The position numbers and the translations under genes are program-made. A DNA stretch of 64,000 bases from Candidatus Latescibacterota bacterium (GTDB lineage Bacteria; Latescibacterota; UBA2968): NCBI GenBank assembly GCA_965207885.1, contig OZ242311.1, forward strand, positions 576,001-640,000, in the 5' to 3' direction. Positions 171 through 49,386 of this stretch are shown here, in pieces (the stretch's first letter is position 1; every line of letters begins with the position of its first letter). A model generated the notes under the pieces. That model was not told the origin of the DNA. It worked only from the letters and a program-made list of their open reading frames with translations, and searched no databases.

Positions 171-473
171 TTAAGCGATGGAGACGACGAGGTTCAAGTT
201 TTCTTTTCGTAGCATGTCTTGTAGTGCAAGCTGAACCCAAAAGCTCTCTGGCTCGCCGAGTTGTCTGGCAATTTTGGCTGCTCTGCTGGGGCTTGGGATT
301 CTTCTTTCTTTTTCTATATCACAAAGGCTTTGAGGCGAAATGCCCAAAAAATCAGCAAACGCTCTCTGGCTTTTTTCTTCTCCTTTTCGATAGCTGGATA
401 GGGCATTTCCAAATGTGAGACACCCAAAGTCTCTCGCCAGTTCAGAAGTCCCATATTGTTCTTTAGTAATCAT
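171..473 (-). CDS. XRE-family HTH protein (HigA-like antitoxin)
   Basis: HTH motif SQRAFADFLGISPQSLCDIEKERR; AGGAG RBS upstream of the ATG at 473. Confidence 0.8.
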   Translation of the reverse strand: MITKEQYGTSELARDFGCLTFGNALSSYRKGEEKSQRAFADFLGISPQSLCDIEKERRIPSPSRAAKIARQLGEPESFWVQLALQDMLRKENLNLVVSIA

Positions 474-517
474 GTTAATTGATCTCCTCACATATCATCA
501 TCCCTATCAACAAACCC

Positions 518-548
518 GTCATTGCGGCATGGTTTTAGCCGCAATCCA
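518..548 (+). repeat. Dispersed palindromic repeat, copy 1 of 7 (GTCATYGCGGC-loop-GCCGCRATCCA)
   Basis: Near-identical hairpins at 8754, 17233, 18770, 22279, 31999 and 62347. Confidence 0.85.
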
Positions 549-742
549 CTACCAGCGTAGTGCGCTCCCGATCTGCCGCATAACTCAAGCAGGCCAAAAT
601 GTCCTCTTCCTGGAGATAGGGAAACTCGTTGAGAATTTCCTGGTGTGTCATACCAGATGTGAGATAATCAAGCACATCATAAACAGTTATTCTCATTCCT
701 CTGATACAAGGCTTTCCGCCTCTCTTTCCAGGTTCAATGGTA

Positions 743-2131
743 TTGACATACTCCCAAAGCTGAAGCATTGGGATTCTCGTAGCTTCAGCAGGGATTGTGC
801 GATCAGCAGTCGCCGCCGACTATACAAGCTCGGTCTTACGCAACCTCCTGCATAGGTGGATGTCCCCACCTGTGAATGTTTATTGCTGCGTTGAGGTCTC
901 TGTCCATCTCGGACCCACATTCGCAACGGAACGTCCTCTCTCGCAAGGGGAGATCTTCTTTAACAGTGCCACAAGCAGAGCAGGTCTTAGAAGTTGGCAG
1001 CCATTGGTTAAGTTGCTTGACTTTCTTGCCTGTCTTTTGTGCGACATACTTGAGAATGGTCAAGAAGTTGGCAAAGCCCAAGTCGTTAATCTTCCTGCCC
1101 CACAGCTTTTGCATGGCTTTGATGTTCAGCTTCTCAAAGCACACAATGTCATATTCTTTGCACAGGTGGTGGGCAAGTCGCCAGTGGTAGTCTCGCCTCT
1201 GATTGGCAACATGCCGATGCACTTTGGCAAGATGTAGCCTTGCTCGATGGCGATTGTTGCTCCCTTTCTGTTTGCGAGAAAGATTGCGGTTGGCTTTCTT
1301 GACCTGTCTGGTGTTGCGAGAAAAGAACAAAGGCGATTGTGTGCGTGTATTGTCAGAGGCAGTCAGGTATGTCTTCAAGCCAAAGTCAAAGCCTGCGGTT
1401 TTACCGTTCTTGGCAATGACTTGCTTGATACCTTCAGCCTTTGCGACAACACATAGCCACAGGTCGCCTACGCGGTCACGGATGATTGTAACCGTCTTAA
1501 TGCTATCTGCATCGAAGGATCTACTCTTATGGTATCTGAAGACACGCCTGCCGATACGCACCTTGTTACCCTCAAGAAACTTGTAGCCTGCCTGCTTTAG
1601 CGTATAGGACAGATACCGAAACTTTGACCTGAAGGTAGGCGGTCGCTTGTTGTCTCTGGCAAAGAATTTCTGATAGCCAAAGTCTATGCGCTCTACTACA
1701 TTTTGCAATGCCTGGGATGGCAATAAGCACCAGTGGGCAAAGCGTGTGGTTCGCTTCAGCTTTGTCAGATGATTGATCAGCGTGAACTTGCTCGGATACT
1801 TGTTGAACCTGCTGTAGTATCGTTTATGCAACGCAATGAAGTGGTTATACACACCGGCAAAGGCGTCTATATCTCGATGGAGATACTTATTGCGATCACA
1901 GCGACTATACAACTTAAACTTGTATGTGATGTAGTCCATACTTGACATCAAAGAAAGAAGCCCGCAAGGTTGTCCACTGATAACCAAAAGCTATCAGACC
2001 TCACGGGCTAATAATAGGCACAAAAAAGGCTTTTGGTTTTGTTCAGTGGACAGAAGTAATATACTTAAATATCAACATCTTAGCAAGGAAAATCCATGCT
2101 AAAGCAACACCAAAATCAAAGCCCTTATCCG
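743..2131 (-). mobile_element. IS200/IS605-family element, tnpB only (IS1341-like), 1389 bp, no target duplication
   Basis: Right end GAATCCCAATGCTTCAGCTTTGGGAGTATGTCAA (subterminal hairpin plus TCAA) ends at 743. Boundaries are fixed by reconstitution of the interrupted gene. Confidence 0.9.
836..1939 (-). CDS. tnpB: RNA-guided endonuclease TnpB
   Basis: RuvC motifs GFDFG, CFEKL and DRDLNAAINI plus zinc ribbon CSAC...CECG. Start at MDYITYKF is preferred because the upstream region is a long hairpin. Confidence 0.93.
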   Translation of the reverse strand: MDYITYKFKLYSRCDRNKYLHRDIDAFAGVYNHFIALHKRYYSRFNKYPSKFTLINHLTKLKRTTRFAHWCLLPSQALQNVVERIDFGYQKFFARDNKRPPTFRSKFRYLSYTLKQAGYKFLEGNKVRIGRRVFRYHKSRSFDADSIKTVTIIRDRVGDLWLCVVAKAEGIKQVIAKNGKTAGFDFGLKTYLTASDNTRTQSPLFFSRNTRQVKKANRNLSRKQKGSNNRHRARLHLAKVHRHVANQRRDYHWRLAHHLCKEYDIVCFEKLNIKAMQKLWGRKINDLGFANFLTILKYVAQKTGKKVKQLNQWLPTSKTCSACGTVKEDLPLRERTFRCECGSEMDRDLNAAINIHRWGHPPMQEVA

Positions 2132-6538: not shown

Positions 6539-6713
6539 CCCCATTGTTTCGGAAGTCCGAGCAGTACGCGATAAACACGCTGCTCAGTTTGGCTACAATC
6601 TCAAAGAGATATTCCGCGATATTAAGAAAAAACAAAAAGCATCTGGTCGTCAATATGTGCAGTATCCATCCCGTGCGGCTGTTGCAACAGCTATTACAAC
6701 TTCAGACCAGTAG
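6525..6713 (+). CDS. Small putative antitoxin-like protein
   Basis: DPIVSEVRAVRDKHAAQFGYNL pattern, common next to PIN genes. Confidence 0.6.
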   Translation: MMTNDPIVSEVRAVRDKHAAQFGYNLKEIFRDIKKKQKASGRQYVQYPSRAAVATAITTSDQ

Positions 6714-31966: not shown

Positions 31967-31998
31967 GAAGTGGGAAGTGGAAAGTGGGAAGGACACCC

Positions 31999-32058
31999 GT
32001 CATCGCGGCATGATCCCCTGCTCAACACCACGCAGGGGCATGGTTGAGCCGCGATCCA
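31999..32058 (+). repeat. Palindrome copy 6 with a nested hairpin insert
   Basis: CCCCTGC-N10-GCAGGGG inserted, with CATG on both sides. Confidence 0.8.
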
Positions 32059-32089
32059 GAAGGTTTTTACTGATCGTGGAGAATGACAG

Positions 32090-34717: not shown

Positions 34718-35056
34718 ATGGCTCTTACGGATCGAGATTTGAGCATCGCAAATGAATTAAAAAATAGGCTGCTCTCGATAGATGAGGAACATCGAATCCG
34801 CAAGGTTATTTTGTACGGTTCTCGCGCTCGGGGAACGGCCAATGTCAATAGTGATTATGACATTCTGGTGATTGAAAAAGATCCGGTGGCAAAACGAGAT
34901 GAAATGTATCGTTTCCGCCAGGCATTGCGTTCTTTACCCTGCGAATTGGACTTGTGGGTTATGGGAAGTCGAGAATTTGAAGAAACCAAAGAAATTATCG
35001 GCGGAATGGCATTCCCTGCTCACAAATACGGTCAGGTTCTTTATGAGATCTCCTGA
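34718..35056 (+). CDS. Minimal nucleotidyltransferase (MNT antitoxin)
   Basis: LYGSRARG...SDYDILV. Confidence 0.88.
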   Translation: MALTDRDLSIANELKNRLLSIDEEHRIRKVILYGSRARGTANVNSDYDILVIEKDPVAKRDEMYRFRQALRSLPCELDLWVMGSREFEETKEIIGGMAFPAHKYGQVLYEIS

Positions 35057-35480
35057 GCAAGTTCAATGGGATTTTGTACAGCAGTGGCTGGATAAGGCGG
35101 AGAATGATCTGAAAGCAACGGAAATACTTTTGAAGAGTGATCTGAAAAGTTTTGAGACTATAGGATTTCACGCACAACAGTCAGCAGAGAAATTCATCAA
35201 AGCCTTCTTGGTGCGTCATCAAGTAGAATTTCCCAAAACACACGATATTTCGAAATTGAGAAATCTGGTACTCAAAATTGATCAGTCAATATCTCTAAAA
35301 TTAGAACCCGCAGATGCACTAACGCCTTATGGTGTCGAATTTCGCTATCCTGGAGATTTCGATCTTAACCACCAACAGGCTGCAACAGCTTTTCAACTTG
35401 CAAAACGGGTTAAGCGGGTCATTATGAACCATTTAAAATCATACCTGGCGCAAGGAAGACCAATTGATCCAGAAGAATGA
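35043..35480 (+). CDS. HEPN domain protein
   Basis: FHAQQSAEKFIKA, KTHD and RYP. Confidence 0.88.
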   Translation: MRSPEQVQWDFVQQWLDKAENDLKATEILLKSDLKSFETIGFHAQQSAEKFIKAFLVRHQVEFPKTHDISKLRNLVLKIDQSISLKLEPADALTPYGVEFRYPGDFDLNHQQAATAFQLAKRVKRVIMNHLKSYLAQGRPIDPEE

Positions 35481-35503
35481 AACTAAAACTCAGGGAAATT
35501 CGC

Positions 35504-35610
35504 GGGATGAACTCGCCCGGGATATTAAAGAGGCGAATCGAGAGTTTCGAGAGGGAAAGGCTCTGCCAACAACGCCCGATGATCTCATGAAAGAGATTAC
35601 ATCGCGATGA
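35504..35610 (+). pseudogene. C-terminal remnant of a type II antitoxin-like gene
   Basis: RDELARDIKEANREFREGKALPTTPDDLMKEITSR*, with no in-frame start identified. Confidence 0.45.
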
Positions 35611-35707
35611 GATATATTGATATGGAAAACGGCTCCTTTATTAAGGAGCCGTTTTTTTGCTATGGAACATTTGGATTCAACTGCTAATCCGGCATACACG
35701 TATGCCA

Positions 35708-37015
35708 TCACCAGACCTGTCTCATTACCAGACCGTCGCACGGTGCTCCGCAGTGTTGTGCGAGCAGGCCGAACTGAAGATGGAAACCGGCGGCGCGTGC
35801 CTTCTCCCAGGCCGCTGGCGACCACAGGCCCTCGGGCCAGGAAAACCAGGGAATGTGGTCCCGATCCTCAACTGCTTCGGCAAGGTCCGTCAGTTCCTCT
35901 CCAAGCCTATCCCGTTTTGTCAAATCCTCGTGGTGGTGGCCATGTGTCGCAATAATCCAACCTTCGGACTTCATATATTTGATGTCCCCGGCGTTCAGCA
36001 ACCACTCCGGGTCCCGCATTGAGGCGACGCCGAGTCCATCCAAAGCGGCGTGTTGATCTGCCTCGGGCAATGTCTTCAATCCCGTTCGGGTCACGCCGCT
36101 GAGTGCTGATCCGCTTTCAGGATCAAGACCGTGTTCAGCACAGTGCTGGTAGAGGCGCTGCAACGGCAGGGGGCGTACGGATTCACCAAAATGGTTCTCG
36201 CCCACGAACAGGACCGGGCACAGGTAGGCTAAATTTTTAAAGGTGTCCGAGAGGTGCATCACGTCCTTCCAGCCATCATCGAATGTGACCAGGGCTACGG
36301 TCTCGGCATTCTTTTTGCGGTTCCACGCCTCAACCCTGCTATTCAATTGCGCCAGACGCCGTATAAGGTCGGATTTTTCAATAGACATGCCATAGCGAAG
36401 ATGTACTTGATGTGATTCGGTGAGTGCGCCATCGTGTACGCGATGCAACGCCGGTACTCCATGGGGATAAAAACCGCTGTTCGCCCGGCCCGCGAAGACG
36501 CCTTTGGGCCGAAGGCGCGTTGCCCACGCCACCACTTCATCTACTGTATCACATCCCGTAATGGTGAATTTTCCACGGCGATGGTCCAGGGCGGCACCAG
36601 CCAGTTTCTCGCTCCAACCGCCCGAAGTTTGTAGCGAGGCGATTGGCTTTCCCTCTTGCCAAGCCACCGCCATCTCGCTCAAGGTGCCCGAGCCGCCCGA
36701 TACAGCGACGATGAGGTCGGCAGAACGCACCACCAGATGATTTCTCATTGAGCCGAGGCCGGTGCGAACGATGCTCGCCGGATGCGGATTTCGCTCCCAA
36801 GCGCGTCCCCAGCCAGGCTCAATGTGAATGAGATTTGTGGAGCCTGTCGAATGTCCGTGGCCCCTCGCCGCGGCGCGCATGACACCATCCATCCCGCCCG
36901 TTACAATATCGAAGCCAGCGTTTCCGAGCGCACATGTCAGTGCCTCCACCATATGTCGGAGTTCGGGTGATATGACGCCCGCCGAGCCAATGATCGCAAC
37001 GATGTTCCGCCTCAT
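35708..37015 (-). CDS. SLOG/LOG-like domain fused to a polysaccharide deacetylase (NodB/CE4) domain
   Basis: VTGGMDGVMRAAARG, RNHLVV and GGSGTLSE, followed by TFDDG, THGHHH and WPEG. Confidence 0.8.
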   Translation of the reverse strand: MRRNIVAIIGSAGVISPELRHMVEALTCALGNAGFDIVTGGMDGVMRAAARGHGHSTGSTNLIHIEPGWGRAWERNPHPASIVRTGLGSMRNHLVVRSADLIVAVSGGSGTLSEMAVAWQEGKPIASLQTSGGWSEKLAGAALDHRRGKFTITGCDTVDEVVAWATRLRPKGVFAGRANSGFYPHGVPALHRVHDGALTESHQVHLRYGMSIEKSDLIRRLAQLNSRVEAWNRKKNAETVALVTFDDGWKDVMHLSDTFKNLAYLCPVLFVGENHFGESVRPLPLQRLYQHCAEHGLDPESGSALSGVTRTGLKTLPEADQHAALDGLGVASMRDPEWLLNAGDIKYMKSEGWIIATHGHHHEDLTKRDRLGEELTDLAEAVEDRDHIPWFSWPEGLWSPAAWEKARAAGFHLQFGLLAQHCGAPCDGLVMRQVW

Positions 37016-40000
37016 CGCCGCCTCCCGGCCAGTGATGGCTTGGCGACAATGCGTGCGATAATTGCCTCGCGAACCTCTCGATCATTCCCTTTTCCCACGC
37101 CCGATGGCTCGTACAGATAGAGGGGTTCTGAGATGTGTACGGGTTTCTCGGCCATCTCTACAATCGGCAACATGTACGCCCAATCGTTGGGAATATCGAT
37201 GTATTCCCCGTCGAGCCGCAAGGCGTCGTCCGGAATGGCATCGAAAAGATATTTCTTGAATGATCGCAGATGCTGCCAGACATTGCCGCCACCCCGCCGC
37301 TCGCGTGACCGGTCAAAACATACGGGATAGTCCTTTGCCTTGTCGGTTCGCAACATCGATCCGACAGTCACATCAGCCCCTCTTGCGTATTCCGTCGCCA
37401 GTCGCGCCAAGACTCGGTCACCGATCAAGGCGTCGTCCGCGTCGAGCGTAACGATGACTGAGTCAGGATTCGTGCATACTGTCCTGATGGCGGTCACCAT
37501 ATTGGCCAGCAATCCCCGGCGATGCCGGTTGCGAATGATCGTGCAACGCTCCCTGAGTGCTTCCCAGGCACTGTCCAAATGTTCGGCGAATATCACATCC
37601 GAGGCGTCGTCAAAAACTACCGTCCCCCATCGTTCGTCTTTTTGCCGGAGCATAGATTCGATACAACGACGAAGCCTGCCCGCCGGTACATTACGCCCCG
37701 AGACCACAAAGACGAATGGCTCGCGTCGGTTCGGTTTCATCCAATCAGCATAGGTTCCGGTCAAATCACACTTGCCTTTCTGAACATCCGGCACTGCACC
37801 ATGTTCGACGCGATCGAGCACGGCGAACCACTCCTCAATGTTGCGCTTGCGCGTATTGGGCGGATGGATATAGAAAGTCCGACGATCACCGCCGCGATAA
37901 GATCTACCTGCGCCGGTACGAATTGCCAGATCCAAAGCCCTGTACCAGGTGCGTGCCAAACGACCTTCATGGAGCCAGTTTGGCAATGGCCGTGCATCGC
38001 GGAGTCTATCGAGATTGATCAGTCCGGCGCGTACTTCTGTACGCCAGGGGGCAGACTGATCACTCGCGGTGTTGGTGTAGGGTCGGTCATGCGCCATCGC
38101 AATGTTAAACGATACGGTAAGTGCCTTGGGATCATCTGCCATCACTGCCAGAATGTCGGCCAGATAATCGTGGGTACGATCCAGTCTGCCGATCAGGACA
38201 TCGGCATCCAACTGAAGAACGTATCGCGTCTTGCAGGCCTCGAATCCCTTGAGTGTCGAAGCGATTTGAGGCCCACTTGCTACATGCGCTTTTGGACAGG
38301 GAACCCCGAACCATCTCTGGTGCAAAAGGGCTGTCGTCTCGCCATCATCAGGGCCATTGACGATTCGGTCAATCCACCCGGCTTCAACCAGGCGGTGCGC
38401 CGCGTTACGCAGATCGCGCAGGTTTCCATTGGCGTATTGTCGGAGGAATCCGTTCTCGCGGGAGTCAAGCACCAGAAGTCGCTCTGAAAACGCCCTCGGT
38501 TCTTCCAGTTGCGAAATGATATGGCGAACCTGTATATCGAGCGTATCTGCTTCCATGGCACACGCCTTGATCATCAAGGTGACTTCGCCGGAGAGTGGTG
38601 CCATAGGCCTGAGTTCGTATGCCAACTGCTCTGAAGCGGGTTCGAATCGCTCCAAATCAACCGTTGGTACTTCCACTCGTCGGCAGATCGCCAGACCCGC
38701 ACGAGCAAATTCGCGCCGTAACGTCCGTTCGGGCCGATGTGCGTGGCGGCGCACCCGACCCGTTGCGCGTAGTTTTTTTTCATATACGAAAGTGCTCTCG
38801 TATTGGGCACCGTCCGGCAGATCGTGATCGGCCTCCGGAGTCGAGCCTCCAAATTTGAAATGCGGATCGCACATTGTCACGATAACCCGACCGCGCTCGG
38901 TTACCAGGGTCCGCAGATCACCGAGAATTGTTTGCAATTCTGTATCATTCTCAATGGTGCATAACACGCGACGACACACCGCGATATCGAACAGTTCAGC
39001 TTTCAGCAGGTCGCTCCGCTCATGCGTAAACCGCAGATTGTCTTTTCCCTGGCAAAGCAAATTCCAGTGTGGTCGGCGCGTGTAATCGGGATCGTAGCCC
39101 AAAATCTGCATCCCCCGATCTGCGAACTCTTTGGACAGCCACCCGTTCCCACAACCATAGTCGAGGACGCGCCCAGCCTGTCCAACCATTTCGAGAACGA
39201 CGTCTTCTTGGGCTTTATGTTGCCCCGTCACTCTGCGAACCGCTTCGTAAAACCAATCAAATCCGTCAAGTTCAGGTATTTCTGGATTATCCAATGCTCT
39301 GCGTGCAATTTTTTTGAAATTGGTGGAGCCGCGGTTCGCCCAGCGATACGATAGATAAGCTCGCTGACACATCTTTACAAATTCGCGCTTCCTGTCAAAC
39401 TTTTCACCTTCTGGAGGGTGGATGTCCGAATGGATGTCTGAGCCGTAATCGATTAATCGCACCCGCCCATCTACTACCCGCAGATTGTTGGGATCAATGT
39501 TGCGGTGGAAAATGCCATGCCGCCAACATTCAGCGAGGAGTGTGACCATGCCCGGTCCATATCCACCGGCGTACGGTTCACTCTCCTCGAATGGATAGAT
39601 CAGTACCGCACGATGTCCAGATTCATGGAAACTGAGGATTGGATATAGACAGTGCGTATCATTATAGGCACCAACGAGGGTACGCAGAAAGGCGGGGGCA
39701 GTAACTTCAGGCGACGATTTCCACCAGTAATCGAATACTTTAAAAACGTGCTTCCCATCGCTGAGGGCCACGCCTTCCTTACCTGATCCCAATACTTTGA
39801 GCGATCCAGCGGGTGCGGCCAGCCGCGCAGCGATGGCCTTGGCATTTGCTCTTCGCTCGCCCTCGAGTCCGCGGCTGGCCAGGGTTTCATAGTTCGAGAG
39901 CCTTTTCCGATGTTGTTTAATCTCTATCGGCAGTTGCCGCAAAAACTTACAGATTTGGCGAATATTCAGTGCTCTGGCTTCGCGTTCGATGCGGTTCAAC

Positions 40001-42288
40001 TTATCCACTTCGTAGCAATCAGTTAGGTGATCAGAGAACGTTCGGAGTTGCTTGATCGCGGCTCGATACTTCTTGTCTTCTCTCCACCAGACCTCCTTTT
40101 TATCCGCGAGGCATCGCAGGATACGCGTTAGGCCGCGGATGCGATGAAAAGAAAGGCGAAACGCCGACAACCGTTCTTCGACATATTTGCCCACGCATGC
40201 GACGAAGTCTTCGGTCATTTCCTCAGACAGTACGAGGCTCAGGTCATCTGTTTTTGTAAAAATGCCTGGAAAATCCTGGAGTGCCGAGAACATCCCATAG
40301 CCGCGAATATCATCAACGATACGCTCGATATCCAACTCGCCAACGGGTAGGTGGGATCGGTCGTGATACAGGGCAATCGGCACGGTGACGATATGGCGAT
40401 TGAAATAGTGTTTTTGTAGCAGTGCCCATATCATGTCAGAGCGACGGCTCGGCCGCTCGTCAATGGTTGGTGAGGAGTTGGGTGCCAGTCTCAGTGCTTC
40501 GACGTCAAACACGAAGGTATTACCGCCACGCTGAAGATCGTCACTGATCGATTCTAAGGGATTGATACCATTCTCAATCGCAAGGGGCCGGAAGACTTGT
40601 TCACCGGCCAGTATGCGCTCGGCTGCGCTGGCGATGCGAGTGAATGCCTCTGCAACGGTTTCTTTGGGAAATGCTGGAGTAATCCAGAACGGCATTTCTA
40701 ACTGATCGGTTTTTTTGCGCGACAGATCGTAATAGTAGTCGCACTGACCGACTCGCAGTGTCGCGTTCTCCAAGCCGCGGTCCGGCAAGACAGCCTGCGA
40801 ATCCTGGGTCGCCAGCCAATGCAGCGATGCAACCAGATCAACGAGTTGAACCCGTACGGTCGCCGCAAACGGTAGCGGAGGCGCACCAGTGTACGCTCCG
40901 AAGACAATATCGACAACACGGCTGGCGCGAAGCCGCCGAAGCTCCCGTAGCAATGGTACGAGTTCTTGGGCACGCCGCTGCAACTCGCCGTTTTCGTCAA
41001 TGACGAGCGGATCTAAGCGCATATCGTCATCCACGATCCACACTATTGATCCGGGCCGGTTCTTGCCGAACGCATACAGATACGTCTGTAGCACCGTTCG
41101 GGCGTCGGCTATGAACAATTTTCTACCATGGCTTGCGCCGCGGTCAAGAACCAGTCCACTCCTGGAATCTTCAATATGCTGTTCGCGATCTACAAGATGG
41201 ATACGCAGGCCAAGATTGCGCTCATTCTCGACGAGGTTCCGCAAATCTTCACAGGATGTCTGATCGCAACCGTTCTCTAAAATCAGGACATCAAGGCCCG
41301 ACAGCCCGGGATCCTCGGCGAGTCCGCGAAGGTCGACGAGTAGATGGCGAATCGCTTCGGGTTGCGCCGTGTCGACGATCATGCCGACGATCAGATGGGG
41401 TGGAGATTGGCGTGGTGCTGCCCCCTCTATACGAGATGACGCAACGCGGCGTGCTGGCATATTTATGGTAAGCTCAAACGCCGATTCGTTTATCCCGAAC
41501 AATCGCTCAGCGCGCGTCCAGAACTCTGTACGCTGAGCATTGGACATGCGGCCGCGGTACTTGCGGAAGAATCGGATGAGTCCCCCGGTTTTTGCTGGCG
41601 ATCCCGGTGTTGACAACCGAGGCCGCGACTGGGAGGCGAAATGATGAACCGTTGGCTCGGTAGTAATGCCGTAGCGCACGCCGGGCAATTCTGCGATGCG
41701 GATGCACAGATCGCGGTCCGTACAACTCGGCAACGATTCGTCGAACAGGCCAGCTTCGAGTAGGACGCTCAACCGGCACACGAGGTTGCTGCCCTGGATT
41801 CCCGGATTTCCCACCAGAAAACTCGCCACTTCGAGTGATCGCGGCGGAACTATCAACTGCGCCTCGGCGTTCTCCTCAATCCGCTGGAACGGTGCCGCTA
41901 CCATGTCGAGACCATGGTTTTTGGCGGCTTCCAAACATCTCTTCAGATGGCGCGGGTCCCAACGGTCATCGTCGTCCAGGATCGCAACATAGAGTTGTGT
42001 GGGGTCGTTGCACGTCCGAAGCAGATGATCCAGGCCGGAGTTCCACGCCCCAGCCGCTCCTTTCGTGCGACGGTTGCGAAGAAAATCCACGTTGATGCCA
42101 GCCGGTTGCCAATTGCGTACCAATTGTTCAGACCGCTCAGCGTCATCGTCACCCGAGTCATCAACCACGATTACCCGCGATGGCGTCCGGTATTGGTTTT
42201 TGATAGAGGGAAGAGCCCGAGCCTTCAAGAGGTCGGTTCGGTGGGCTGTGGCGACAAGAACTGCCACGGTACTTTTTGAAGAATACAT
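37012..42288 (-). CDS. 1758-aa multidomain protein: GT2, GT-A-like, kinase-like, SAM methyltransferase, GT-A-like, GT2
   Basis: VVDDS/AWNSG/LDDDD; IVDDDM; LGSGKEG...K...HRNIDPNN...IDYG; LDYGCGNG; QLDADV; FDDAS/LDADD. Confidence 0.85.
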   Translation of the reverse strand: MYSSKSTVAVLVATAHRTDLLKARALPSIKNQYRTPSRVIVVDDSGDDDAERSEQLVRNWQPAGINVDFLRNRRTKGAAGAWNSGLDHLLRTCNDPTQLYVAILDDDDRWDPRHLKRCLEAAKNHGLDMVAAPFQRIEENAEAQLIVPPRSLEVASFLVGNPGIQGSNLVCRLSVLLEAGLFDESLPSCTDRDLCIRIAELPGVRYGITTEPTVHHFASQSRPRLSTPGSPAKTGGLIRFFRKYRGRMSNAQRTEFWTRAERLFGINESAFELTINMPARRVASSRIEGAAPRQSPPHLIVGMIVDTAQPEAIRHLLVDLRGLAEDPGLSGLDVLILENGCDQTSCEDLRNLVENERNLGLRIHLVDREQHIEDSRSGLVLDRGASHGRKLFIADARTVLQTYLYAFGKNRPGSIVWIVDDDMRLDPLVIDENGELQRRAQELVPLLRELRRLRASRVVDIVFGAYTGAPPLPFAATVRVQLVDLVASLHWLATQDSQAVLPDRGLENATLRVGQCDYYYDLSRKKTDQLEMPFWITPAFPKETVAEAFTRIASAAERILAGEQVFRPLAIENGINPLESISDDLQRGGNTFVFDVEALRLAPNSSPTIDERPSRRSDMIWALLQKHYFNRHIVTVPIALYHDRSHLPVGELDIERIVDDIRGYGMFSALQDFPGIFTKTDDLSLVLSEEMTEDFVACVGKYVEERLSAFRLSFHRIRGLTRILRCLADKKEVWWREDKKYRAAIKQLRTFSDHLTDCYEVDKLNRIEREARALNIRQICKFLRQLPIEIKQHRKRLSNYETLASRGLEGERRANAKAIAARLAAPAGSLKVLGSGKEGVALSDGKHVFKVFDYWWKSSPEVTAPAFLRTLVGAYNDTHCLYPILSFHESGHRAVLIYPFEESEPYAGGYGPGMVTLLAECWRHGIFHRNIDPNNLRVVDGRVRLIDYGSDIHSDIHPPEGEKFDRKREFVKMCQRAYLSYRWANRGSTNFKKIARRALDNPEIPELDGFDWFYEAVRRVTGQHKAQEDVVLEMVGQAGRVLDYGCGNGWLSKEFADRGMQILGYDPDYTRRPHWNLLCQGKDNLRFTHERSDLLKAELFDIAVCRRVLCTIENDTELQTILGDLRTLVTERGRVIVTMCDPHFKFGGSTPEADHDLPDGAQYESTFVYEKKLRATGRVRRHAHRPERTLRREFARAGLAICRRVEVPTVDLERFEPASEQLAYELRPMAPLSGEVTLMIKACAMEADTLDIQVRHIISQLEEPRAFSERLLVLDSRENGFLRQYANGNLRDLRNAAHRLVEAGWIDRIVNGPDDGETTALLHQRWFGVPCPKAHVASGPQIASTLKGFEACKTRYVLQLDADVLIGRLDRTHDYLADILAVMADDPKALTVSFNIAMAHDRPYTNTASDQSAPWRTEVRAGLINLDRLRDARPLPNWLHEGRLARTWYRALDLAIRTGAGRSYRGGDRRTFYIHPPNTRKRNIEEWFAVLDRVEHGAVPDVQKGKCDLTGTYADWMKPNRREPFVFVVSGRNVPAGRLRRCIESMLRQKDERWGTVVFDDASDVIFAEHLDSAWEALRERCTIIRNRHRRGLLANMVTAIRTVCTNPDSVIVTLDADDALIGDRVLARLATEYARGADVTVGSMLRTDKAKDYPVCFDRSRERRGGGNVWQHLRSFKKYLFDAIPDDALRLDGEYIDIPNDWAYMLPIVEMAEKPVHISEPLYLYEPSGVGKGNDREVREAIIARIVAKPSLAGRRR

Positions 42289-42290
42289 CT

Positions 42291-42486
42291 TTTCCTCCTA
42301 TGATGTCAAGGAGTGATTAACTACATATCATCCGTCCACCAAGAGCAGAAGAGCTTTCGACTGGCGTCGAGTCTGGAGGAAATATCTACATCATAAGAAT
42401 CTCTTTCAGGCCACACTCAACCGTCTCGTGCGGTTAGATGATATGACGAATGAAAAAAGAATAGAGAAAGCCAGGTAGATTGGCAA
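42291..42486 (-). promoter_or_regulatory. Sigma70-like promoter and structured 5' leader of the 1758-aa gene
   Basis: TTGCCA (42486-42481)-17-TATTCT; 9-bp closing stem 42437-42445/42324-42332; two internal hairpins; anti-SD segments. Confidence 0.55.
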
Positions 42487-42516
42487 GTGTTTTTTAGATT
42501 ATATGCATATCTGCGC

Positions 42517-44055
42517 TCAATCTTCCACGGGTCCAGCATAAGGCGCGTGTTCGAATCGACAGGGCGATTCGACGAGGCGTGGGTCGCTTTGTTCGCGCAG
42601 GATTTGCATGAGTGTGGTGGAGAGTTCTTTGCGGATGGGGTCGTATTCGGGGTCGGCGGCGATGTTGTTCATGTAGTGCGGGTCCACGCGCAGGTCGTAG
42701 AGTTCTTCCTGGGGACGTTTGCCAAAGCCGATTTCGAATAGTTCCTGTACGTCTTGTTCTGCGCGGTGGAGGATCATATAGGATTTTGTGGGGCTGGCAT
42801 CCATGTCGGGATAGGCGATGAAGGTTTTCCCTGTCAGGTCTTCAGCCGAGGGGGCTTCTGCATGGAGGTCGTCGAGTCCTTGAGGATCGCCCATGGGCCA
42901 GCGGTCGGGTGCAAAGTTGTGGATGTAGAGAAAGTCGGCCGTGCGGATGGCGCGTTGCGGGTAGGGTAGCTGGCCTTCTCTTGCGGTGCCAACGTGCCGT
43001 TCCCGGCCGGTGATGACAAAGGTGCGGTCGGGATCGACCAGGCCGCTCTGGTCGCTTTTGAGAACGGGGAGCAGGCTTTTGCCGGTCATGGTATCGGGGA
43101 TGTCTGCGCCTGCGGCTTCGAGGAATGTGGGGGCGAGGTCCATGAGGTTGACAAAGTCTTCAACGGTGCGTCCCGCAGGGATGTTGTTGGGCCAGCGCGC
43201 GGCGAGGGTGACTTCACAGCCGATGTCGTAGAGGTTGCATTTGCCGCGTGGAAAGCCCGGTATGCCGTGGTCGCCGCTGACGACGATGAGGGTGTTGTCG
43301 AGTTCGCCGATTTCTTCGAGGCGCTGGATCAAGACGCCCAGGCCAGCGTCAACGGCCTGACATTCGCCCAGGTAGTCGGCTACGTCTTCGCGGATGTCGT
43401 GTACATCGGGGAGGAAGTCGGGTAAGCGGCCTTTGAGGTCGTCGGGTTCTAAACCCCACACAGCTTTGCCGGAGCCGCGTTCCCAGGAGCGGTGGGTGTT
43501 GGTGGGTCCCCACCAGTAGCAGAAGGGTGTGTTCTCTGGACGGGCGTCGAGGAATGCGTTGAAGTTGTCGCGGGTTTCGTTCAGGAGGGCTTGTTTGGCG
43601 CCTTCAACGCCCAGTTCATCGGCGTTTTTGGTTACCCAGTGGGAGAATCTGCGGTAGTTGTTGCCGGCAGATTCATAGCGGGTTCGGTCGGCGCCATACG
43701 GTGCGTTGGCGGCTTTTCCGGGGGACCAGACTTTGTAGGTATAGCCGATGTGGTATCCGGCTTTTTCGAGTTCGAGGGGGTAGGTGGGGATGCTTTCGTC
43801 CCATATCGCACCTTGTAAGATGGCGCCGAGGCCGGTTTGCCAGAAGTATTGTCCAGAGAGGATGGCGCTTCGGCAGGGGGTGCAACTCGGCGCGGGTACA
43901 AAGGCGTTGGTGAATAACGCGCCTTCGCGGGCGATGCGGTCAAAGTTGGGGGTGTCGATGAGGTGATTGAGAGAGTTGGGGCCTTCAATGCGCTGATAAG
44001 CACTGGCATAACGCCCCCAGTCGTCGGCAAAAGCAAAGAGGATGTTGGGTTGCAT
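42517..44055 (-). CDS. Sulfatase (formylglycine-dependent)
   Basis: PNILFAFADD, CTPCR and GDHG. Confidence 0.93.
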   Translation of the reverse strand: MQPNILFAFADDWGRYASAYQRIEGPNSLNHLIDTPNFDRIAREGALFTNAFVPAPSCTPCRSAILSGQYFWQTGLGAILQGAIWDESIPTYPLELEKAGYHIGYTYKVWSPGKAANAPYGADRTRYESAGNNYRRFSHWVTKNADELGVEGAKQALLNETRDNFNAFLDARPENTPFCYWWGPTNTHRSWERGSGKAVWGLEPDDLKGRLPDFLPDVHDIREDVADYLGECQAVDAGLGVLIQRLEEIGELDNTLIVVSGDHGIPGFPRGKCNLYDIGCEVTLAARWPNNIPAGRTVEDFVNLMDLAPTFLEAAGADIPDTMTGKSLLPVLKSDQSGLVDPDRTFVITGRERHVGTAREGQLPYPQRAIRTADFLYIHNFAPDRWPMGDPQGLDDLHAEAPSAEDLTGKTFIAYPDMDASPTKSYMILHRAEQDVQELFEIGFGKRPQEELYDLRVDPHYMNNIAADPEYDPIRKELSTTLMQILREQSDPRLVESPCRFEHAPYAGPVED

Positions 44056-45435: not shown

Positions 45436-45595
45436 CCTATTTCTCCTGTGAATATCAGGATGCATCCTATTGAGAGGAAGAAGATAATATTACCATTCGA
45501 GTAGCGGAATAGTTTCCTCTTCTCTTATAAGTGGAACATGAGTACGCACATCCCAGGGAAGAATCTGATGATCCGAAATATATGAAGCCCGGAAA

Positions 45596-47146
45596 CTAGG
45601 CCAATTCAAAACTTTTAACTGCGCTGTGTTCCTCGTCAGTGGCATTTGCGCGAATGATTACATCCCCGAGTTTGTGTTTATTGCCAGTGTAAAGGTGAGG
45701 CAGAGTGATTTCAGATACCCAGATATGTTCCGGCATATTCTCGAATCTCTGTTCAATTTCTGGAGTTAATGTTGTATGGCCATCTTGAACCAGACTATCA
45801 ATATATTGTCTATAGGATTCTTTTGTTTGAAGCAGCGTTCGACTTACGATTTTGCCGGATTGTTGAGCTAATCTTTTAAGCCAAATAGGGGGATGTTGTA
45901 TTTTTGTGATTTTGATAAGAAATTGGGTAATCCTTACCGCTATCCCTTCTGCCCAAAGGCCCGAGAACTGCACACCAGAAGGTACTATGGCAACTGCTAT
46001 TCTGGCGTGTAAGTTCGGATTTTTTGACGGAACAAGGAAATTTCTCAACATATCAGATGGCAAAGTCAAGTACATACCAAAATTATCATCATTGATGATA
46101 TAGTGTCCAGTCCATCCAGTAGCTGGGATATAAGGTTGCGCTTGCAATCCACTATATCCGACTCGGGCTTCAGGTTCCCACCGGTCGGAATTGAGTGTAT
46201 GTCCTAAAACGGAAACCACATGGTTAATTATTTCATTACGAGAATCCCGACCTTCTATTCCCAATATCACGGGACAGGCAGACTCGACAAATGGATAGAT
46301 AAATTGGTCGTATTCCACGGAAGTGTCTTGTACAAAATCTGCTGATATTGTTCTCCCACCCAATTGGCTAACAACGTCTTCTAACTCTTGTTGACCCAAG
46401 CCTCTTTTGGTTCTTGGGGGATCACTGTCTATATGGCCTACGCATTTTTCAGGGCTGCTGAAGTCAATTCCCAGAATCTCATTGATCTTTCGATTTGTGA
46501 GCTTTTCAGAGGTAACCGTATCTGAGCTATTTATGGCCATTCGCAAGGCGGCATGAGCACAGACATGGGTAAGGTTATTTTGTTGGGCAAAAAAACTGCC
46601 CGGCAGAGTAAAGGTTCTCGATTTTTCTTTTGTGCCGATGTGTGTTTCAAAATTTCTTCTGTTATGTACGTAGTAATTTGTGATGGGTTCAATGGAAATC
46701 CGGTCTTCTGTATCTCGCACCCAGATGGAGGGGGGACGAACCACGGATTCCAATAGGTATGTTGTATATTTGTCACCCGGTAGTTCAAGCGTTGCTATCA
46801 CAGCGTAACCCAGGAGATGGTCGTCCAGTAACTTATCTGGATCGTTCCATTTTAGGGGAGAAGGCAATGACCGAAAGAATGTCAGGCGTGTCGCAGTGAG
46901 GCTTACCTTTTGTTTACATCGCTCAGCGGCCATATCCTGTTCTTCTAACAATTCCTCGTTTAATTCCAATTCCTCTCTGATAAACGATTTGACCTTCATC
47001 TTTCTCATTAGCGTACATAGACGGTTCATAGGGTCTGATCCGATATTGCTTTTCGGATGCCAGATATCTTCCACAAGTTGATAAAACGAGAAGGGTACTT
47101 GGCATGATTCCAGTAGTTTTTGTTCTTTTGCGAAGGCGTCTTTCAT
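45596..47146 (-). CDS. Papain-like (C39-type) peptidase-domain protein, C-terminus probably truncated
   Basis: QQ...VCAHAAL, HVVSVLGH and INDDNFG triad. TAG at 45596-45598 sits where W would give LAWFPG, and the frame stays open after it. Confidence 0.6.
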   Translation of the reverse strand: MKDAFAKEQKLLESCQVPFSFYQLVEDIWHPKSNIGSDPMNRLCTLMRKMKVKSFIREELELNEELLEEQDMAAERCKQKVSLTATRLTFFRSLPSPLKWNDPDKLLDDHLLGYAVIATLELPGDKYTTYLLESVVRPPSIWVRDTEDRISIEPITNYYVHNRRNFETHIGTKEKSRTFTLPGSFFAQQNNLTHVCAHAALRMAINSSDTVTSEKLTNRKINEILGIDFSSPEKCVGHIDSDPPRTKRGLGQQELEDVVSQLGGRTISADFVQDTSVEYDQFIYPFVESACPVILGIEGRDSRNEIINHVVSVLGHTLNSDRWEPEARVGYSGLQAQPYIPATGWTGHYIINDDNFGMYLTLPSDMLRNFLVPSKNPNLHARIAVAIVPSGVQFSGLWAEGIAVRITQFLIKITKIQHPPIWLKRLAQQSGKIVSRTLLQTKESYRQYIDSLVQDGHTTLTPEIEQRFENMPEHIWVSEITLPHLYTGNKHKLGDVIIRANATDEEHSAVKSFELA

Positions 47147-47172
47147 AGGCGGATCCTTATTTTTTCACATCA

Positions 47173-47201
47173 AAAAAGCCTCGTAAACACACGAGGCTTT
47201 T
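47173..47201. terminator. Bidirectional terminator
   Basis: AAAAGCCTCGT-loop-ACGAGGCTTTT. Confidence 0.7.
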
Positions 47202-47228
47202 GATTTTTGGCTATAAGTTAATAATGAC

Positions 47229-47417
47229 TCATCTTCCCACCGGTTGCCCCAGGATCCAATGCGTTTTTGCAGACCTTTTTTCCCAATCCAAAAAATTCTT
47301 AAGAGCCTGTTTTTCTTCGGGGGTCAACTCAAGGTCTTCGGGTTTGGGAGTGCGAAGAAATATGGTTTGAGGTGTCTGTTGTGTAACGGGTTCATTTTGG
47401 GACTGGCTTTGGGACAT
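47229..47417 (-). CDS. Small hypothetical protein (62 aa)
   Basis: GGAGGAG RBS before MSQSQSQ. Confidence 0.6.
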   Translation of the reverse strand: MSQSQSQNEPVTQQTPQTIFLRTPKPEDLELTPEEKQALKNFLDWEKRSAKTHWILGQPVGR

Positions 47418-47572
47418 AACTCTCCTCCGGTTACAATGAAAAACAGAACTACTCAAACAAGATGATTTTGAAACAATGTCAACATAAACTTGACAAATAT
47501 AAGCAAAAAATTCGCTTGAACAAACCAAAAGTTATAATAAAAAAAATAATTCCACAGAAATTGATTGCTAAG

Positions 47573-47836
47573 CTACAACCCTGCTTCCTTTTTGACCTTT
47601 TCCCATGGAATGGGCTTTTTCCCTATTTGTTCCATTTCTTTTACCGCTTGGTCTGCTGCTCGGTTGTCAATCACGTTTTCCAAAAATTGAAAAATTTCTT
47701 CTTCCGGAATACCCTGCTTTTGAGCTTTCACAATAGCAGTTTCAAATGCTTCCCAGAGTTCTCTTTGTACATTTTCGGGTTTCTTGGCGATTGTTGGGCA
47801 AGATTCTGGCACATCAATGGGGGTCGAAATGGCCAT
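47573..47836 (-). CDS. Orphan antitoxin-like protein
   Basis: C-terminal IPWEKVKKEAGL is typical of RelB-like antitoxins; AAGGAG RBS. Confidence 0.6.
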   Translation of the reverse strand: MAISTPIDVPESCPTIAKKPENVQRELWEAFETAIVKAQKQGIPEEEIFQFLENVIDNRAADQAVKEMEQIGKKPIPWEKVKKEAGL

Positions 47837-47910
47837 TGAGATACTCCTTCAGAGCACAAACAAATTTATTGGCCTTACTACGCAAATTTCGCTGTCTGAA
47901 GTTCAAGATT

Positions 47911-48984: not shown

Positions 48985-49386
48985 TTTTTGTAATCACTGT
49001 TCAAACAACACTTTTTTTATAATATAATTTTCCCCTCACAAGATCAAGCCTGACCTGGAGATTTTGTGAGCATTTTCTTAAAACCAGACCAGAGTCTTGA
49101 TAAGCATGTTTCTGGTCCTATTTCTCGAGGCTCTTCGGGAAGCATGCCCTCCCACTCCCTCAGCGTCGAACGCACTGCCCAGGCCGCCAAAAGATCAAGG
49201 TGGCCCCCGCCGCGAACAAGGCGAGAATTCCTGCAATGAGAGCGATGGTTCCTCCAATTTTTTGCATGTTATCTTTCCTTTCCTTCAACGATCCACAATA
49301 AATCATTACCACTCCTTTCTACTGATACGTCAGACAAGATTATAACAAATGCGCTGTTGGTTTTTGCCGACAAATTACGAATATGA

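Follow-up and report, generated by a model that had tools for sequence, protein, structure and literature searches.

In this study, we analyzed a pair of genes in a 64,000-nucleotide stretch of the genome of a Candidatus Latescibacterota bacterium (GenBank assembly GCA_965207885.1, contig OZ242311.1, positions 576,001 to 640,000 of the forward strand). This whole stretch is called the window, and positions are those of the window unless another sequence is named. The first gene encodes P0001, a soluble protein that combines glycosyltransferase (GT) domains with a mutase-like, a kinase-like and a methyltransferase domain, and the second encodes P0002, in which a SLOG domain is joined to a CE4 deacetylase domain. 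Together with the region upstream of them, the two genes make up an island:

35659..42520, minus strand: inserted island of 6.86 kb, comprising the two genes and a 232-bp upstream region
37012..42288, minus strand: gene 1, an open reading frame (ORF) of 1758 amino acids (P0001), predicted soluble multi-domain glycoconjugate synthase
35708..37015, minus strand: gene 2, an ORF of 435 amino acids (P0002), SLOG-CE4 fusion
42289..42520, minus strand: upstream region, with AGGAGG before the ATG of gene 1 and a promoter-like site at 42486-42458

The stop codon of gene 1 and the start codon of gene 2 overlap in the sequence ATGA, and GGGAGG lies a few bases upstream of the gene 2 start. A preliminary description of the window, made from its letters and a list of its ORFs, had proposed two translationally coupled genes, and the ORF list bears this out. 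An Rfam scan of positions 35400-42700 found no riboswitch or other Rfam family.

Insertion of the gene pair

When 20 kb around the pair was used as a query, the flanks were found joined and the island missing in all 20 other genomes of the same genus. In G007, G025 and G017, the left flank (up to position 6659 of the query) abuts the right flank (from query position 13522-13525). A base-level comparison with the empty sites shows that homology stops at 35658 and restarts at 42521-42524, and in two same-genus genomes 9 and 13 unrelated bases stand in place of the island. The GC skew of the island ranges from -0.08 to 0.0, whereas both flanks range from +0.15 to +0.34 irrespective of gene orientation. 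The island is a discrete, horizontally acquired and recent insertion. Inspection of the sequence at its ends revealed no target-site duplication, terminal inverted repeat, integrase or transposase. Because the insertion relative to the same-genus genomes comprises exactly these two genes and their upstream region, the pair can be considered a self-contained unit, as the preliminary description had supposed.

Compared with the same-genus genomes, the insertion replaced the last few codons of the neighboring sulfatase gene (42517-44055), in which homology runs from 42521-42524 on and the stop codon lies at 42517-42519. A paralogous stretch, 73% identical to this gene, occurs at G000:C1:2750007-2751547. 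The plus-strand GC skew is strongly positive, with values up to +0.36, across most of 8-34 kb and 42-46 kb whichever way the genes run, and the island interrupts it.

Domain architecture of P0001

The domains were assigned with Pfam, AlphaFold2 (AF2) models built on family alignments, Foldseek, an exhaustive VIA fold search and profile comparisons with the PDB. Six domains were delimited in P0001:

41458..42276, minus strand: GT-A1, GT2 glycosyltransferase domain (residues ~5-277, DDDD 105-108; PF00535 and VIA)
39874..41406, minus strand: GT75-mutase-like domain with a helical tail (residues ~295-805, DDD 420-422; VIA)
39199..39813, minus strand: compact protein-kinase-like domain (residues ~826-1030; LGxGxEG loop, VxK, xRNxxPxN and DYG)
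38599..39198, minus strand: class I S-adenosylmethionine (SAM)-dependent methyltransferase domain (residues ~1031-1230, DYGCG; Pfam and VIA)
37774..38598, minus strand: GT-A3, the least certain domain (residues ~1231-1505, DAD 1361-1363; weak Pfam GT21 and Glyco_tranf_2_2)
37015..37725, minus strand: GT-A4, GT2 glycosyltransferase domain (residues ~1522-1758, LDADD; second PF00535 stretch)

All nine motifs quoted in the preliminary description are found at their places in the translations: LDDDD (104-108), VDDDM (419-423), LDADV (1360-1364), LDADD (1615-1619), HRNIDPNN (927-934) and DYGCG (1042-1046) in P0001, and GGSGTLSE (107-114), TFDDG (244-248) and HGHHH (358-362) in P0002. The AF2 model of residues 1-830 has a predicted local distance difference test score (pLDDT) of 86.6 and a predicted template modeling score (pTM) of 0.88, and the model of residues 801-1758 has values of 84.0 and 0.81. 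The cytoplasmic location that had been proposed is also borne out, as neither protein contains a membrane segment by Kyte-Doolittle analysis (top 19-residue means of 1.26 for P0001 and 1.30 for P0002).

Glycos_transf_2 (PF00535) matches P0001 in two stretches (4.7e-31, 108.4 bits vs a cut-off of 23.3), which correspond to GT-A1 and GT-A4. In the AF2 models, both domains have a GT-A fold in which the strands 99-105 and 1611-1616 are followed by DDDD and DADD, respectively, and VIA aligns them with SpsA, TarS and WrtF at Z scores of 19-22. The individual matches of GT-A1 (5-277) are WrtF (Z 22.1), AvpGT (9jma, Z 21.4, 24% identity), SpsA, CgT, TarS, RmlT and TarP, and those of GT-A4 are TarS (Z 20.0), WrtF (19.9) and SpsA (19.7). 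The DDDDxW motif of GT-A1 is present in 117 of 120 homologues and the LDADD motif of GT-A4 in 111. GT-A1 also has a sub-threshold match to the NCBIfam model MftF (44.4 bits, cut-off 280), and the other sub-threshold NCBIfam matches of P0001 are to exopolysaccharide (EPS), colanic-acid and teichuronic-acid GT2 enzymes.

The assignment of GT-A3 is weaker. Pfam gives weak GT21 and GT2_2 matches at 1333-1400, the profile search found no PDB sequence match, and the domain is structurally covered only through a dual-domain alignment of K4CP with residues 431..955. D1361 and D1363 are invariant in 20 sequences, and the nearest cluster in a protein atlas, "GT family 2" at 0.96, is taken as a lead only.

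The top Foldseek matches of both halves of P0001 are the dual GT-A enzymes PmHS2, K4CP and LARGE1, with E values of 1e-11 to 9e-16. The superposition of whole halves is poor (root-mean-square deviation, rmsd, of 15-21 Å; TM 0.2-0.3), and therefore only single domains match these polymerases; judged from the models, the matches reflect the presence of tandem GT-A domains and not a common arrangement. As for the four GT domains of the preliminary description, three stand as GT-A transferase-like domains; the second DxD domain instead has a GT75-mutase-like fold in the VIA search.

For this second DxD domain, VIA ranks MtdL first (7xpu_A, Z 22.1, rmsd 3.2, 305 of 371 residues aligned, model range 295..801). 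Rice UAM2 (8cid_B) is matched at Z 17.7 with 288 of 344 residues aligned, and both GT75 matches lie on model residues 294-805. According to the report on MtdL (PMC9937993), GT75 enzymes convert nucleoside diphosphate (NDP)-pyranoses into NDP-furanoses with Mn2+, a conserved arginine becomes autoglycosylated, the core and the C-terminal helical regions of MtdL are unique to the GT75 family, and the best non-GT75 structural neighbor reaches only Z 15.4 over 228 residues. The MtdL match is therefore specific, because it extends over 305 residues and includes the family-unique core and helices. In the model, residues ~295-805 have the fold of the GT75 pyranose-to-furanose mutases, including the family-specific core and helices, and this fold suggests that a sugar-nucleotide-editing function is probably built into P0001. 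The statement that no sugar-nucleotide gene is evident in the pair is probably wrong, given this fold and the NDP-sugar epimerase/dehydratase genes that follow the pair in several related loci (see below).

At the level of sequence, the mutase-like region belongs to no Pfam family. None of 25 diverse members matched RGP (PF03214) or DUF6271 (PF19787) at E<=1, and neither model, searched against the organism's own genome, matched this region at E<=10. Profiles of the domain, one of them diverse, found no PDB sequence relative; hhalign against one haloarchaeal RGP-family protein returned a probability of 0.2; and the RGP model had no match in 168 genomes of the phylum. The DUF6271 (0.94) and RGP (0.90) clusters lie near the domain in the protein atlas, which is again a lead only. 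In the diverse 25-member alignment, no variation is seen at R397, DDD 420-422 (D420 and D422), D484, D521, R567, R587, R615, R616 and D618; a closer set of homologues also conserves H642 and R644. The residues of MtdL available for comparison are R90, D109-111, R159, D195, R257-x-x-D260 and H287-x-R289 (PMC9937993). The conserved residues of P0001 appear to resemble this catalytic constellation in their spacing, with the DxD motif placed after strand 4. The mutase-like family is large: clustering at 50% identity gives 655 clusters, of which 297 match at E<=1e-30, and the domain sits behind a GT2 domain in seven of the nine representatives scanned.

The kinase-like domain is short (~205 residues) and lacks an activation segment in the AF2 model. 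Pfam Pkinase falls below its cut-off on residues 904-950 (E 0.076, 12.8 bits vs 31.7); a family profile nevertheless finds the MRCK, TTK and ROCK kinase cores in the PDB at E 1e-5, with the Gly-rich loop, the beta-3 Lys, the catalytic-loop Asn and DFG (here DYG) in register. LGxGxEG, VxK, the N at +5 and DYG are invariant in 20 sequences. Of 120 long-form homologues, 116 bear the motif, and all of these have Asn in place of the catalytic Asp of HRD, as do 27 of 27 sequences in a second set; HRN, as found in the window, is the minority form, and CRN is usual. The kinase fold with HRNIDPNN in place of HRD, as first described, is thus supported by the motif, the profile match and the family-wide substitution. 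The domain probably binds ATP. In two gammaproteobacterial long forms (L016 and L018; 1971 and 2062 amino acids), a Pro/Arg-rich insertion of ~40 residues is located in the N-lobe of this domain.

The methyltransferase that had been recognized by its DYGCG motif is confirmed by Methyltransf_23 (2.1e-13 at 1037-1201, 50.8 bits vs a cut-off of 27), by the VIA matches of residues 1025-1230 to XrdM (8rdl, Z 21.1), 3e8s (Z 20.1), GSMT and CypM, and by the presence of DYGCG in 119 of 120 homologues. Its structural neighbors are mostly small-molecule N-methyltransferases, which is weak evidence of substrate type because class I methyltransferases are alike.

The SLOG-CE4 protein

P0002 consists of two domains:

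36491..37015, minus strand: SLOG/LOG-like domain (residues 1-175; GGMDGVM, R91 and GGSGTLSE with E114)
35711..36310, minus strand: CE4 deacetylase domain (residues ~236-435; TFDDG and H358/H362)

The Pfam family LDcluster4 (SLOG cluster 4) matches residues 5-136 at 1.2e-26 (93.6 bits vs a cut-off of 26.3). The PDB matches of this domain are the Thermotoga maritima protein 1rcu (3.4e-15), the Chlamydomonas molybdenum cofactor (Moco) carrier protein 2iz5 (5e-8) and the LOG protein 5zi9 (1e-3), with which it can be aligned at the GGxxGxM, Arg and GGxGTxxE motifs; neither R91 nor E114 varies in the family. The NCBIfam model TIGR00725 scores 71.6 bits, below its trusted cut-off of 106.9. In the second domain, Polysacc_deac_1 matches residues 336-412 (4.6e-08, 33.5 bits vs a cut-off of 23.1), and PdaA matches as well. 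In 30 sequences, D246 never varies, and D247, H358 and H362 are retained in at least 90%, which corresponds to the metal triad of TFDDG and H-x3-H. W393-P394-E395-G396 is conserved at the expected place of motif 3 (RxPxG), and motifs 4 (DxxDW) and 5 (LxH) could not be recognized confidently. With both Pfam families above their cut-offs and the motifs conserved, the union of a LOG/SLOG domain with a CE4 deacetylase, as initially read from the letters, holds.

The SLOG-CE4 family comprises 103 clusters that are 38-99% identical to P0002, all but one of them 48-99%, and in that search the fusion is limited to this system. The source names of its members are only "polysaccharide deacetylase family protein" or "TIGR00725 family".

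Distribution and gene pairing

A word-indexed protein search with P0001 returned 571 matches. The best 120 of these are 56-100% identical to the query, and 110 of them are 1687-2089 amino acids long with 94-100% query cover, closed chromosomes included. Their source annotation is limited to "glycosyltransferase", in three rows. The 1758-codon frame is uninterrupted, and contigs of independent runs, from both DNA and RNA libraries, are colinear across the gene without joints. An assembly fusion of the large ORF, which the preliminary description had raised as a concern, is ruled out by these contigs and by the more than 100 full-length homologues at 56-81% identity.

From contigs of one genome per species, we collected 27 loci (L001-L027), each with the large gene or with just its N-terminal half. 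According to their titles, these are from metagenome-assembled genomes (MAGs) of Alphaproteobacteria, Gammaproteobacteria, Latescibacterota, Gemmatimonadota, Poribacteria and "Poriferihabitaceae". More distant copies of P0001 occur in Roseovarius (41%), Lysobacteraceae (41%) and an archaeon (34%). The identities are out of step with taxonomy: L009 (Latescibacterota) and L010 (Gemmatimonadota) are 89% identical, L001 (Alphaproteobacteria) and L016 (Gammaproteobacteria) 81%, and the locus closest to that of the window is gammaproteobacterial (71%). By these comparisons, the P0001 family has been transferred between phyla. Motifs of catalytic type are kept across relatives at 34-89% identity, and the cross-phylum relatives are 60-89% identical. 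Within related genomes the distribution is sparse, with P0001 in 4 of 41 genomes including that of the window, in 1 of 20 in the genus (as two broken frames) and in 2 of 13 in another genus of the order; P0002 is found in 2 of 53 genomes of the order.

Within the genus, relatives occur in just one other genome, G023 (L037 and L042). Its gene for the N-terminal half is split into two frames (residues 4-497 and 583-803), and its SLOG-CE4 gene lies ~45 kb from that gene, which suggests that this copy is decaying or rearranged.

An HMM search located a SLOG gene in 13 of the 27 loci, with the CE4 fusion in 7. The SLOG gene directly follows the large gene in ten (L004, as a 92-amino-acid fragment, L005, L011, L012, L014, L019, L022, L024, L025 and L026) and stands further along the gene array in three (L015, L020 and L027). 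In the most distant relatives (the archaeon, Roseovarius and Nannocystis), SLOG occurs alone. A medium-length form of P0001 without GT-A3 and GT-A4 is followed by SLOG in all seven loci in which it was seen (L011, L012, L019, L068, L070, L102 and L111). In loci with both proteins, P0001 (55-67% identity) and P0002 (60-71%) have diverged to a similar degree. The pairing with SLOG is ancient and frequent, and it is dispensable for the long form.

Most of the relatives come from MAGs whose names are of a sponge type, and their distribution within the order is patchy. Public sequencing runs with the label sponge metagenome also contain the stretch. In one study, three sponge metatranscriptome libraries yielded contigs that are 95-99% like the window and cover most of both genes, although DNA carry-over is possible in those libraries; one contig of 2086 bases spans the junction of the two genes. 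In all three runs the contigs end at 42427-42439, close to the promoter-like site. The flanking sulfatase and MNT-HEPN genes have no cover in these libraries, a gap that we did not use, as the contigs may come from a relative with other flanks. The source bacterium is probably associated with sponges.

Variant cassettes

The mutase-like core occurs in several architectures: a long form of ~1750 amino acids, a medium form of ~1220 that ends after the methyltransferase, the N-terminal half as its own gene (~810) and a stand-alone form (~480). Further arrangements are a fusion of AsnB, arylamine N-acetyltransferase (NAT), GT2 and core (P0323) and a permuted GT2-kinase-like-core protein on a Pseudoalteromonas plasmid. 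Split forms are seen in L015, L020, L023, L027 and a Salinivibrio plasmid. Six plasmid records match, only two of them beyond the GT2 domain.

The genes around the core vary accordingly. In L015 and L020, the N-half gene heads an array that encodes an unknown protein, a sulfotransferase, an M20-like protein, PhyH, an arylamine-NAT-like protein, PhyH once more, SLOG-CE4 and a short-chain dehydrogenase/reductase (SDR), and parts of this array recur in the metagenome loci L046-L048, L050, L052, L055 and L064. After the plasmid form come genes for a RibA-like GTP cyclohydrolase II, an asparagine-synthase-related (AsnB-like) protein and an arylamine NAT, and the metagenome locus L051 has the same set together with a stand-alone CE4-like gene. 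An SDR NDP-sugar epimerase/dehydratase gene follows the pair in L014, L015, L020 and L026. It is of the generic 4-epimerase/4,6-dehydratase type; identification as a GDP-mannose 3,5-epimerase was rejected, as the best matches are dTDP-glucose 4,6-dehydratase and UDP-sugar 4-epimerases.

As judged from their sequences, the family includes nucleotide-processing enzymes of two different kinds, SLOG and RibA-like. A nucleotide-derived acceptor, which the preliminary description had proposed, gains indirect support because the RibA-like gene takes the place of the SLOG gene in variant cassettes; the part of that proposal that tied the acceptor to SLOG does not extend to the family as a whole, in which SLOG is not general.

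No flanking gene family is common to the related loci. The neighborhoods annotated by Pfam or RefSeq contain no lipopolysaccharide (LPS) or capsule cluster and no export genes, so that the placement of homologues in such clusters, for which a check had been advised, was not seen there. The neighbors of the Roseovarius and archaeal loci yielded nothing interpretable.

Neighboring genes and defense context

The pair adjoins an MNT-HEPN module in the window:

34718-35056: MNT gene (112 amino acids), adjoining the pair
34872-35480: HEPN gene (202 amino acids), adjoining the pair; the GC content of this ORF is only 41.7%

The adjacency had been correctly reported. However, a functional relation does not follow from it, as G007, G025 and G017 carry MNT-HEPN (34718-35480) and all lack the island. 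The module is absent from G008, G010, G012, G013, G015 and G019, a presence/absence polymorphism within the genus, and it is a separate indel unrelated to the gene pair. A terminator-like palindrome at 35626-35657 marks its right edge.

In L007, L009 and L010, the large gene lies among a type I restriction-modification S subunit, HEPN genes, STAND NTPases, AAA_15/AAA_21 ATPases and an SbcCD-like pair. In 7 of the 27 loci, such an AAA_15/21 ATPase gene lies no more than 10 kb away, and in L009, L010 and L014 it is directly upstream. PADLOC-DB 2.0 gave only partial domain matches for P0001 (mad2 methyltransferase at 1035-1216, 1.8e-7; PD-T4-6 kinase at 916-952, 6e-5), no match for P0002 and no full-length component match for either protein. 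No homologue was found in phage records or viral contigs, the latter searched with one search pattern only. The defense context is suggestive and not specific, as such islands also collect non-defense cargo.

The island around L007, L009 and L010 spans at least 20 kb, is common to Latescibacterota and Gemmatimonadota MAGs, and includes two HEPN genes, a STAND NTPase of 1505-1703 amino acids and a helix-turn-helix gene; the GT proteins of these loci are 85-89% identical.

Elsewhere in the window, a palindromic element of ~71 nucleotides (31998-32068) lies between MobA-like and DHDPS-like genes. It recurs 100% identical at G000:C1:908177-908247 and at 80-94% in many same-genus genomes; it looks like a REP-like dispersed repeat by sequence, and identification as a tRNA was rejected. 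On the other side of the island, 45470-49000 is a variable low-GC stretch (GC 0.42 in 46001-48000) that is 78-87% conserved or absent in same-genus genomes. It contains a 516-amino-acid ORF without a Pfam family (45596-47146) and a 357-amino-acid NucS-like ORF (47911-48984) that matches the PADLOC candidate PDC-S11 at 6e-29, followed by a DnaB-type helicase gene (49387-50745).

Comparison with known systems

The GT75 mutases, namely MtdL of the A201A pathway, Hyg20 and the plant UAM/RGP proteins, resemble residues ~295-805 of P0001 in predicted fold and in the DxD motif after strand 4. Arg, Asp and His residues of the P0001 domain also seem to stand at a spacing comparable with that of the MtdL residues given in PMC9937993. 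However, there is no detectable sequence relationship, the P0001 domain is ~100 residues larger, and its mutase role is predicted. MtdL is a stand-alone 376-residue tetramer, whereas the P0001 domain is fused behind a GT2 domain and ahead of kinase-like, methyltransferase and GT domains.

The dual GT-A polymerases Escherichia coli K4CP, Pasteurella PmHS2 and LARGE1 likewise have tandem GT-A domains on one soluble chain. P0001 differs in its four DxD domains, its kinase-like and methyltransferase domains, and the lack of capsule export genes nearby. WbdD, the chain terminator of the O-antigen in the ABC-transporter pathway, is a kinase and methyltransferase; as in P0001, its kinase-fold domain neighbors a class I SAM methyltransferase and the setting is glycan assembly. 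The two domains stand in the opposite order, P0001 has Asn for the catalytic Asp, and the island has no Wzm/Wzt context or transporter; WbdD is not among the PDB matches listed.

In the pathways of the cytosine-nucleoside antibiotics blasticidin S (BlsM/BlsD) and amicetin (AmiI, AmiF, the Ami GTs and an N-methyltransferase), a base is freed by a nucleotide N-glycosidase, glycosylated, N-methylated and amide-tailored, to which the NAT-type and AsnB-type genes of the variant cassettes would correspond. The cassette differs in having no deoxysugar or peptide-building genes, and SLOG is absent from about half of the loci. BlsM, MilB and AmiI are assigned to the nucleoside 2-deoxyribosyltransferase family and are not known as members of SLOG cluster 4. 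With LOG, TIGR00725 and the Moco carrier protein, P0002 shares a SLOG cluster 4 match above the cut-off and aligned GGxxGxM, Arg and GGxGTxxE motifs; P0002 differs by its score below the TIGR00725 cut-off (71.6 vs 106.9) and its fusion to CE4.

In the NodB/NodS system, a chain made by a GT2 enzyme is de-N-acetylated by a cytoplasmic CE4 enzyme, and the freed amine is then N-methylated in a SAM-dependent manner. The sulfotransferase and acyl/acetyl-transferase tailoring genes of the variant cassettes have parallels there as well, although the cassette is without a membrane-embedded processive NodC-type synthase and without NodA. For mycofactocin glycosylation, the sole link given by the search tools is the sub-threshold match of GT-A1 to MftF.

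Interpretation

The analysis shows which domains the two proteins contain, how far their motifs are conserved, that the pair moves as one unit and that variant cassettes exist. We believe that the pair may be a cytoplasmic, natural-product-like assembly line for a furanose-containing methylated glycoside, possibly built on a nucleotide-derived acceptor. We hold this view tentatively, with a probability of about 0.4. A cytoplasmic product is favored because both proteins are soluble, the island has no export gene and no flanking family is common to the loci. A natural-product-like character is favored because the variants keep the GT2 and mutase-like core and exchange tailoring genes of a small-molecule type.

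From these observations, we infer the substrates, the order of the steps, the product and the biological role as follows. The mutase-like domain would convert a common NDP-pyranose into an NDP-furanose donor, and the GT-A domains would then place two or three sugars onto a small cytoplasmic acceptor. The methyltransferase would methylate the product. The kinase-like domain would bind ATP and would either phosphorylate in a poor or atypical manner or act solely as a scaffold that binds nucleotide. In loci with gene 2, the SLOG domain would supply or hold a nucleotide-derived acceptor, for example the base or ribose phosphate freed from a nucleoside monophosphate, and CE4 would strip the N-acetyl group from an N-acetylhexosamine unit and expose an amine for further tailoring.

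A number of points weigh against this interpretation. The two genes do not always occur together: the SLOG gene is missing from 14 of the 27 related loci, and in five genomes with the large gene and no adjacent SLOG there is no relative of P0002 anywhere at E<=1e-5. Therefore, a SLOG-derived acceptor cannot be general. A P0001-like sequence accompanies the SLOG- or CE4-like relatives in only 12 of 80 metagenome loci, many of these contigs being short, and SLOG cluster 4 is a broader family whose relatives at 30-50% identity occur in other contexts. The link to GT75 is a structural one only, with the RGP and DUF6271 models silent, no PDB sequence relative and the low hhalign probability, and the mapping of R479, D521, R615-x-x-D618 and H642-x-R644 to MtdL is one of spacing and not a residue-level superposition. 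The kinase-like domain may be inactive, and the long form has no aglycone-building enzyme. The closest structural neighbors of GT-A1 and GT-A4 (TarS, TarP and RmlT) decorate polymers, and both halves resemble the dual-domain polymerases K4CP and PmHS2. Finally, the acceptor, product and activity are predicted and none has been observed.

The alternative that survives best is that P0001 works at the cytoplasmic side of the membrane on a glycan that is lipid-linked or part of a polymer (O-antigen, teichoic-acid-like or capsule) and lengthens or caps it, with exporters encoded elsewhere. The kinase-like and methyltransferase domains would then form a chain-end cap, CE4 would de-N-acetylate the polymer, and transfer of the island would vary the cell surface. 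The closeness of GT-A1 and GT-A4 to TarS, TarP, RmlT, WrtF, SpsA and CgT and the alignment of both halves with K4CP, PmHS2 and LARGE1 agree with such a function, as do the sub-threshold matches to EPS, colanic-acid and teichuronic-acid GT2 enzymes. CE4 enzymes commonly work on polysaccharides, and the pairing of a kinase with a methyltransferase recalls WbdD. However, a membrane anchor or amphipathic segment is lacking, no exporter or polyprenol-linked priming gene occurs in the island or among the annotated neighbors, and the kinase-like domain lacks the catalytic Asp that a glycan kinase should have. Relatives occur in several bacterial phyla and in an archaeon, which makes one common envelope acceptor unlikely, and the RibA-like, AsnB-like, NAT, PhyH and M20 partners are unusual for envelope clusters. 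We consider this alternative somewhat unlikely.

A role in biological conflict appears distinctly unlikely to us. According to this explanation, a nucleotide, a nucleic-acid base or a signaling nucleotide is glycosylated and methylated, with SLOG as sensor or processor, and phages or mobile elements are blocked; alternatively, the product is a toxic nucleoside-like weapon. The extremely patchy spread (4 of 41 genomes) and the nearly identical copies in different phyla (L009 and L010) would fit such a function, the neighbors of L007, L009 and L010 and the AAA_15/21 ATPases of several loci are of a defense type, MNT-HEPN and the PDC-S11 candidate gene lie near the pair, and SLOG domains have been tied to conflict systems in the literature. 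By contrast, MNT-HEPN is an independent indel, neither protein has an effector-type domain (nuclease, pore or NADase), PADLOC offers P0001 only partial single-domain matches and P0002 none, homologues were not found in phage records or viral contigs, and genomic islands gather defense genes and other cargo alike. The anti-phage role suggested in the preliminary description thus retains weak guilt by association from the L007, L009 and L010 islands, and neither protein has a full-length PADLOC match.

It is highly improbable, in our opinion, that the GT75-like domain glycosylates its own arginine and that the other GT domains extend this primer, so that the enzyme is its own acceptor. Such a mechanism would draw on the GT75-type fold, the autoglycosylation of a conserved Arg in GT75 members as described in PMC9937993, the invariance of R567, R587, R615 and R616, and the ability of the large protein to occur without its partner gene; however, the autoglycosylation of GT75 enzymes goes together with their mutase reaction, with no known role as a primer of polymers, and P0001 has no sequence-level link to GT75. 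That the 1758-codon ORF is an assembly or annotation fusion or a decaying pseudogene, as the split forms (L015, L020, L023, L027 and the Salinivibrio plasmid) might suggest, can be dismissed in view of the 110 of the 120 best matches that are near full length, closed chromosomes included, the intact frame and motifs, and the colinear contigs of independent runs. The remaining probability belongs to an explanation outside the cytoplasmic glycoside reading and these four rivals.

The glycoside assembly line can also be given a bolder form, which we regard as doubtful. The pair would be a mobile glyco-nucleobase factory shared among unrelated sponge symbionts, in which SLOG or, in variants, RibA-like enzymes make the acceptor from a nucleotide, GT75-like domains of a hitherto unrecognized family provide furanose donors, and the fused transferases, the methyltransferase and a repurposed pseudokinase carry out the assembly, and a nucleoside-antibiotic-like or signaling glycoside would be made for the chemical defense or conflict of the holobiont.

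Significance

Every module of the pair comes from a known superfamily. As far as a limited search of the literature shows, the architecture is undescribed, both in its combination of modules and in its GT75-like domain family and its universally Asp-less kinase-like domain. The clean insertion site, the inter-phylum transfer and the modular variants make the system easy to clone and to compare. If the pair were an envelope-glycan editor instead, it would represent a fairly ordinary accessory glycosyltransferase with an unusual architecture.

If the glycoside reading is correct, furanose-sugar chemistry would gain a large unannotated family whose core domain has no Pfam model and forms 655 clusters at 50% identity, and a whole glycoside pathway would be compressed into one mobile gene. 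The kinase-like domain, with its universal Asp-to-Asn change, would offer a test case for pseudokinase function of a non-canonical kind, and the system could be a source of new nucleoside-like metabolites within sponge microbiomes. Should the glyco-nucleobase factory also prove true, these proteins would constitute a new and widespread class of cytoplasmic single-polypeptide glycoside synthases.

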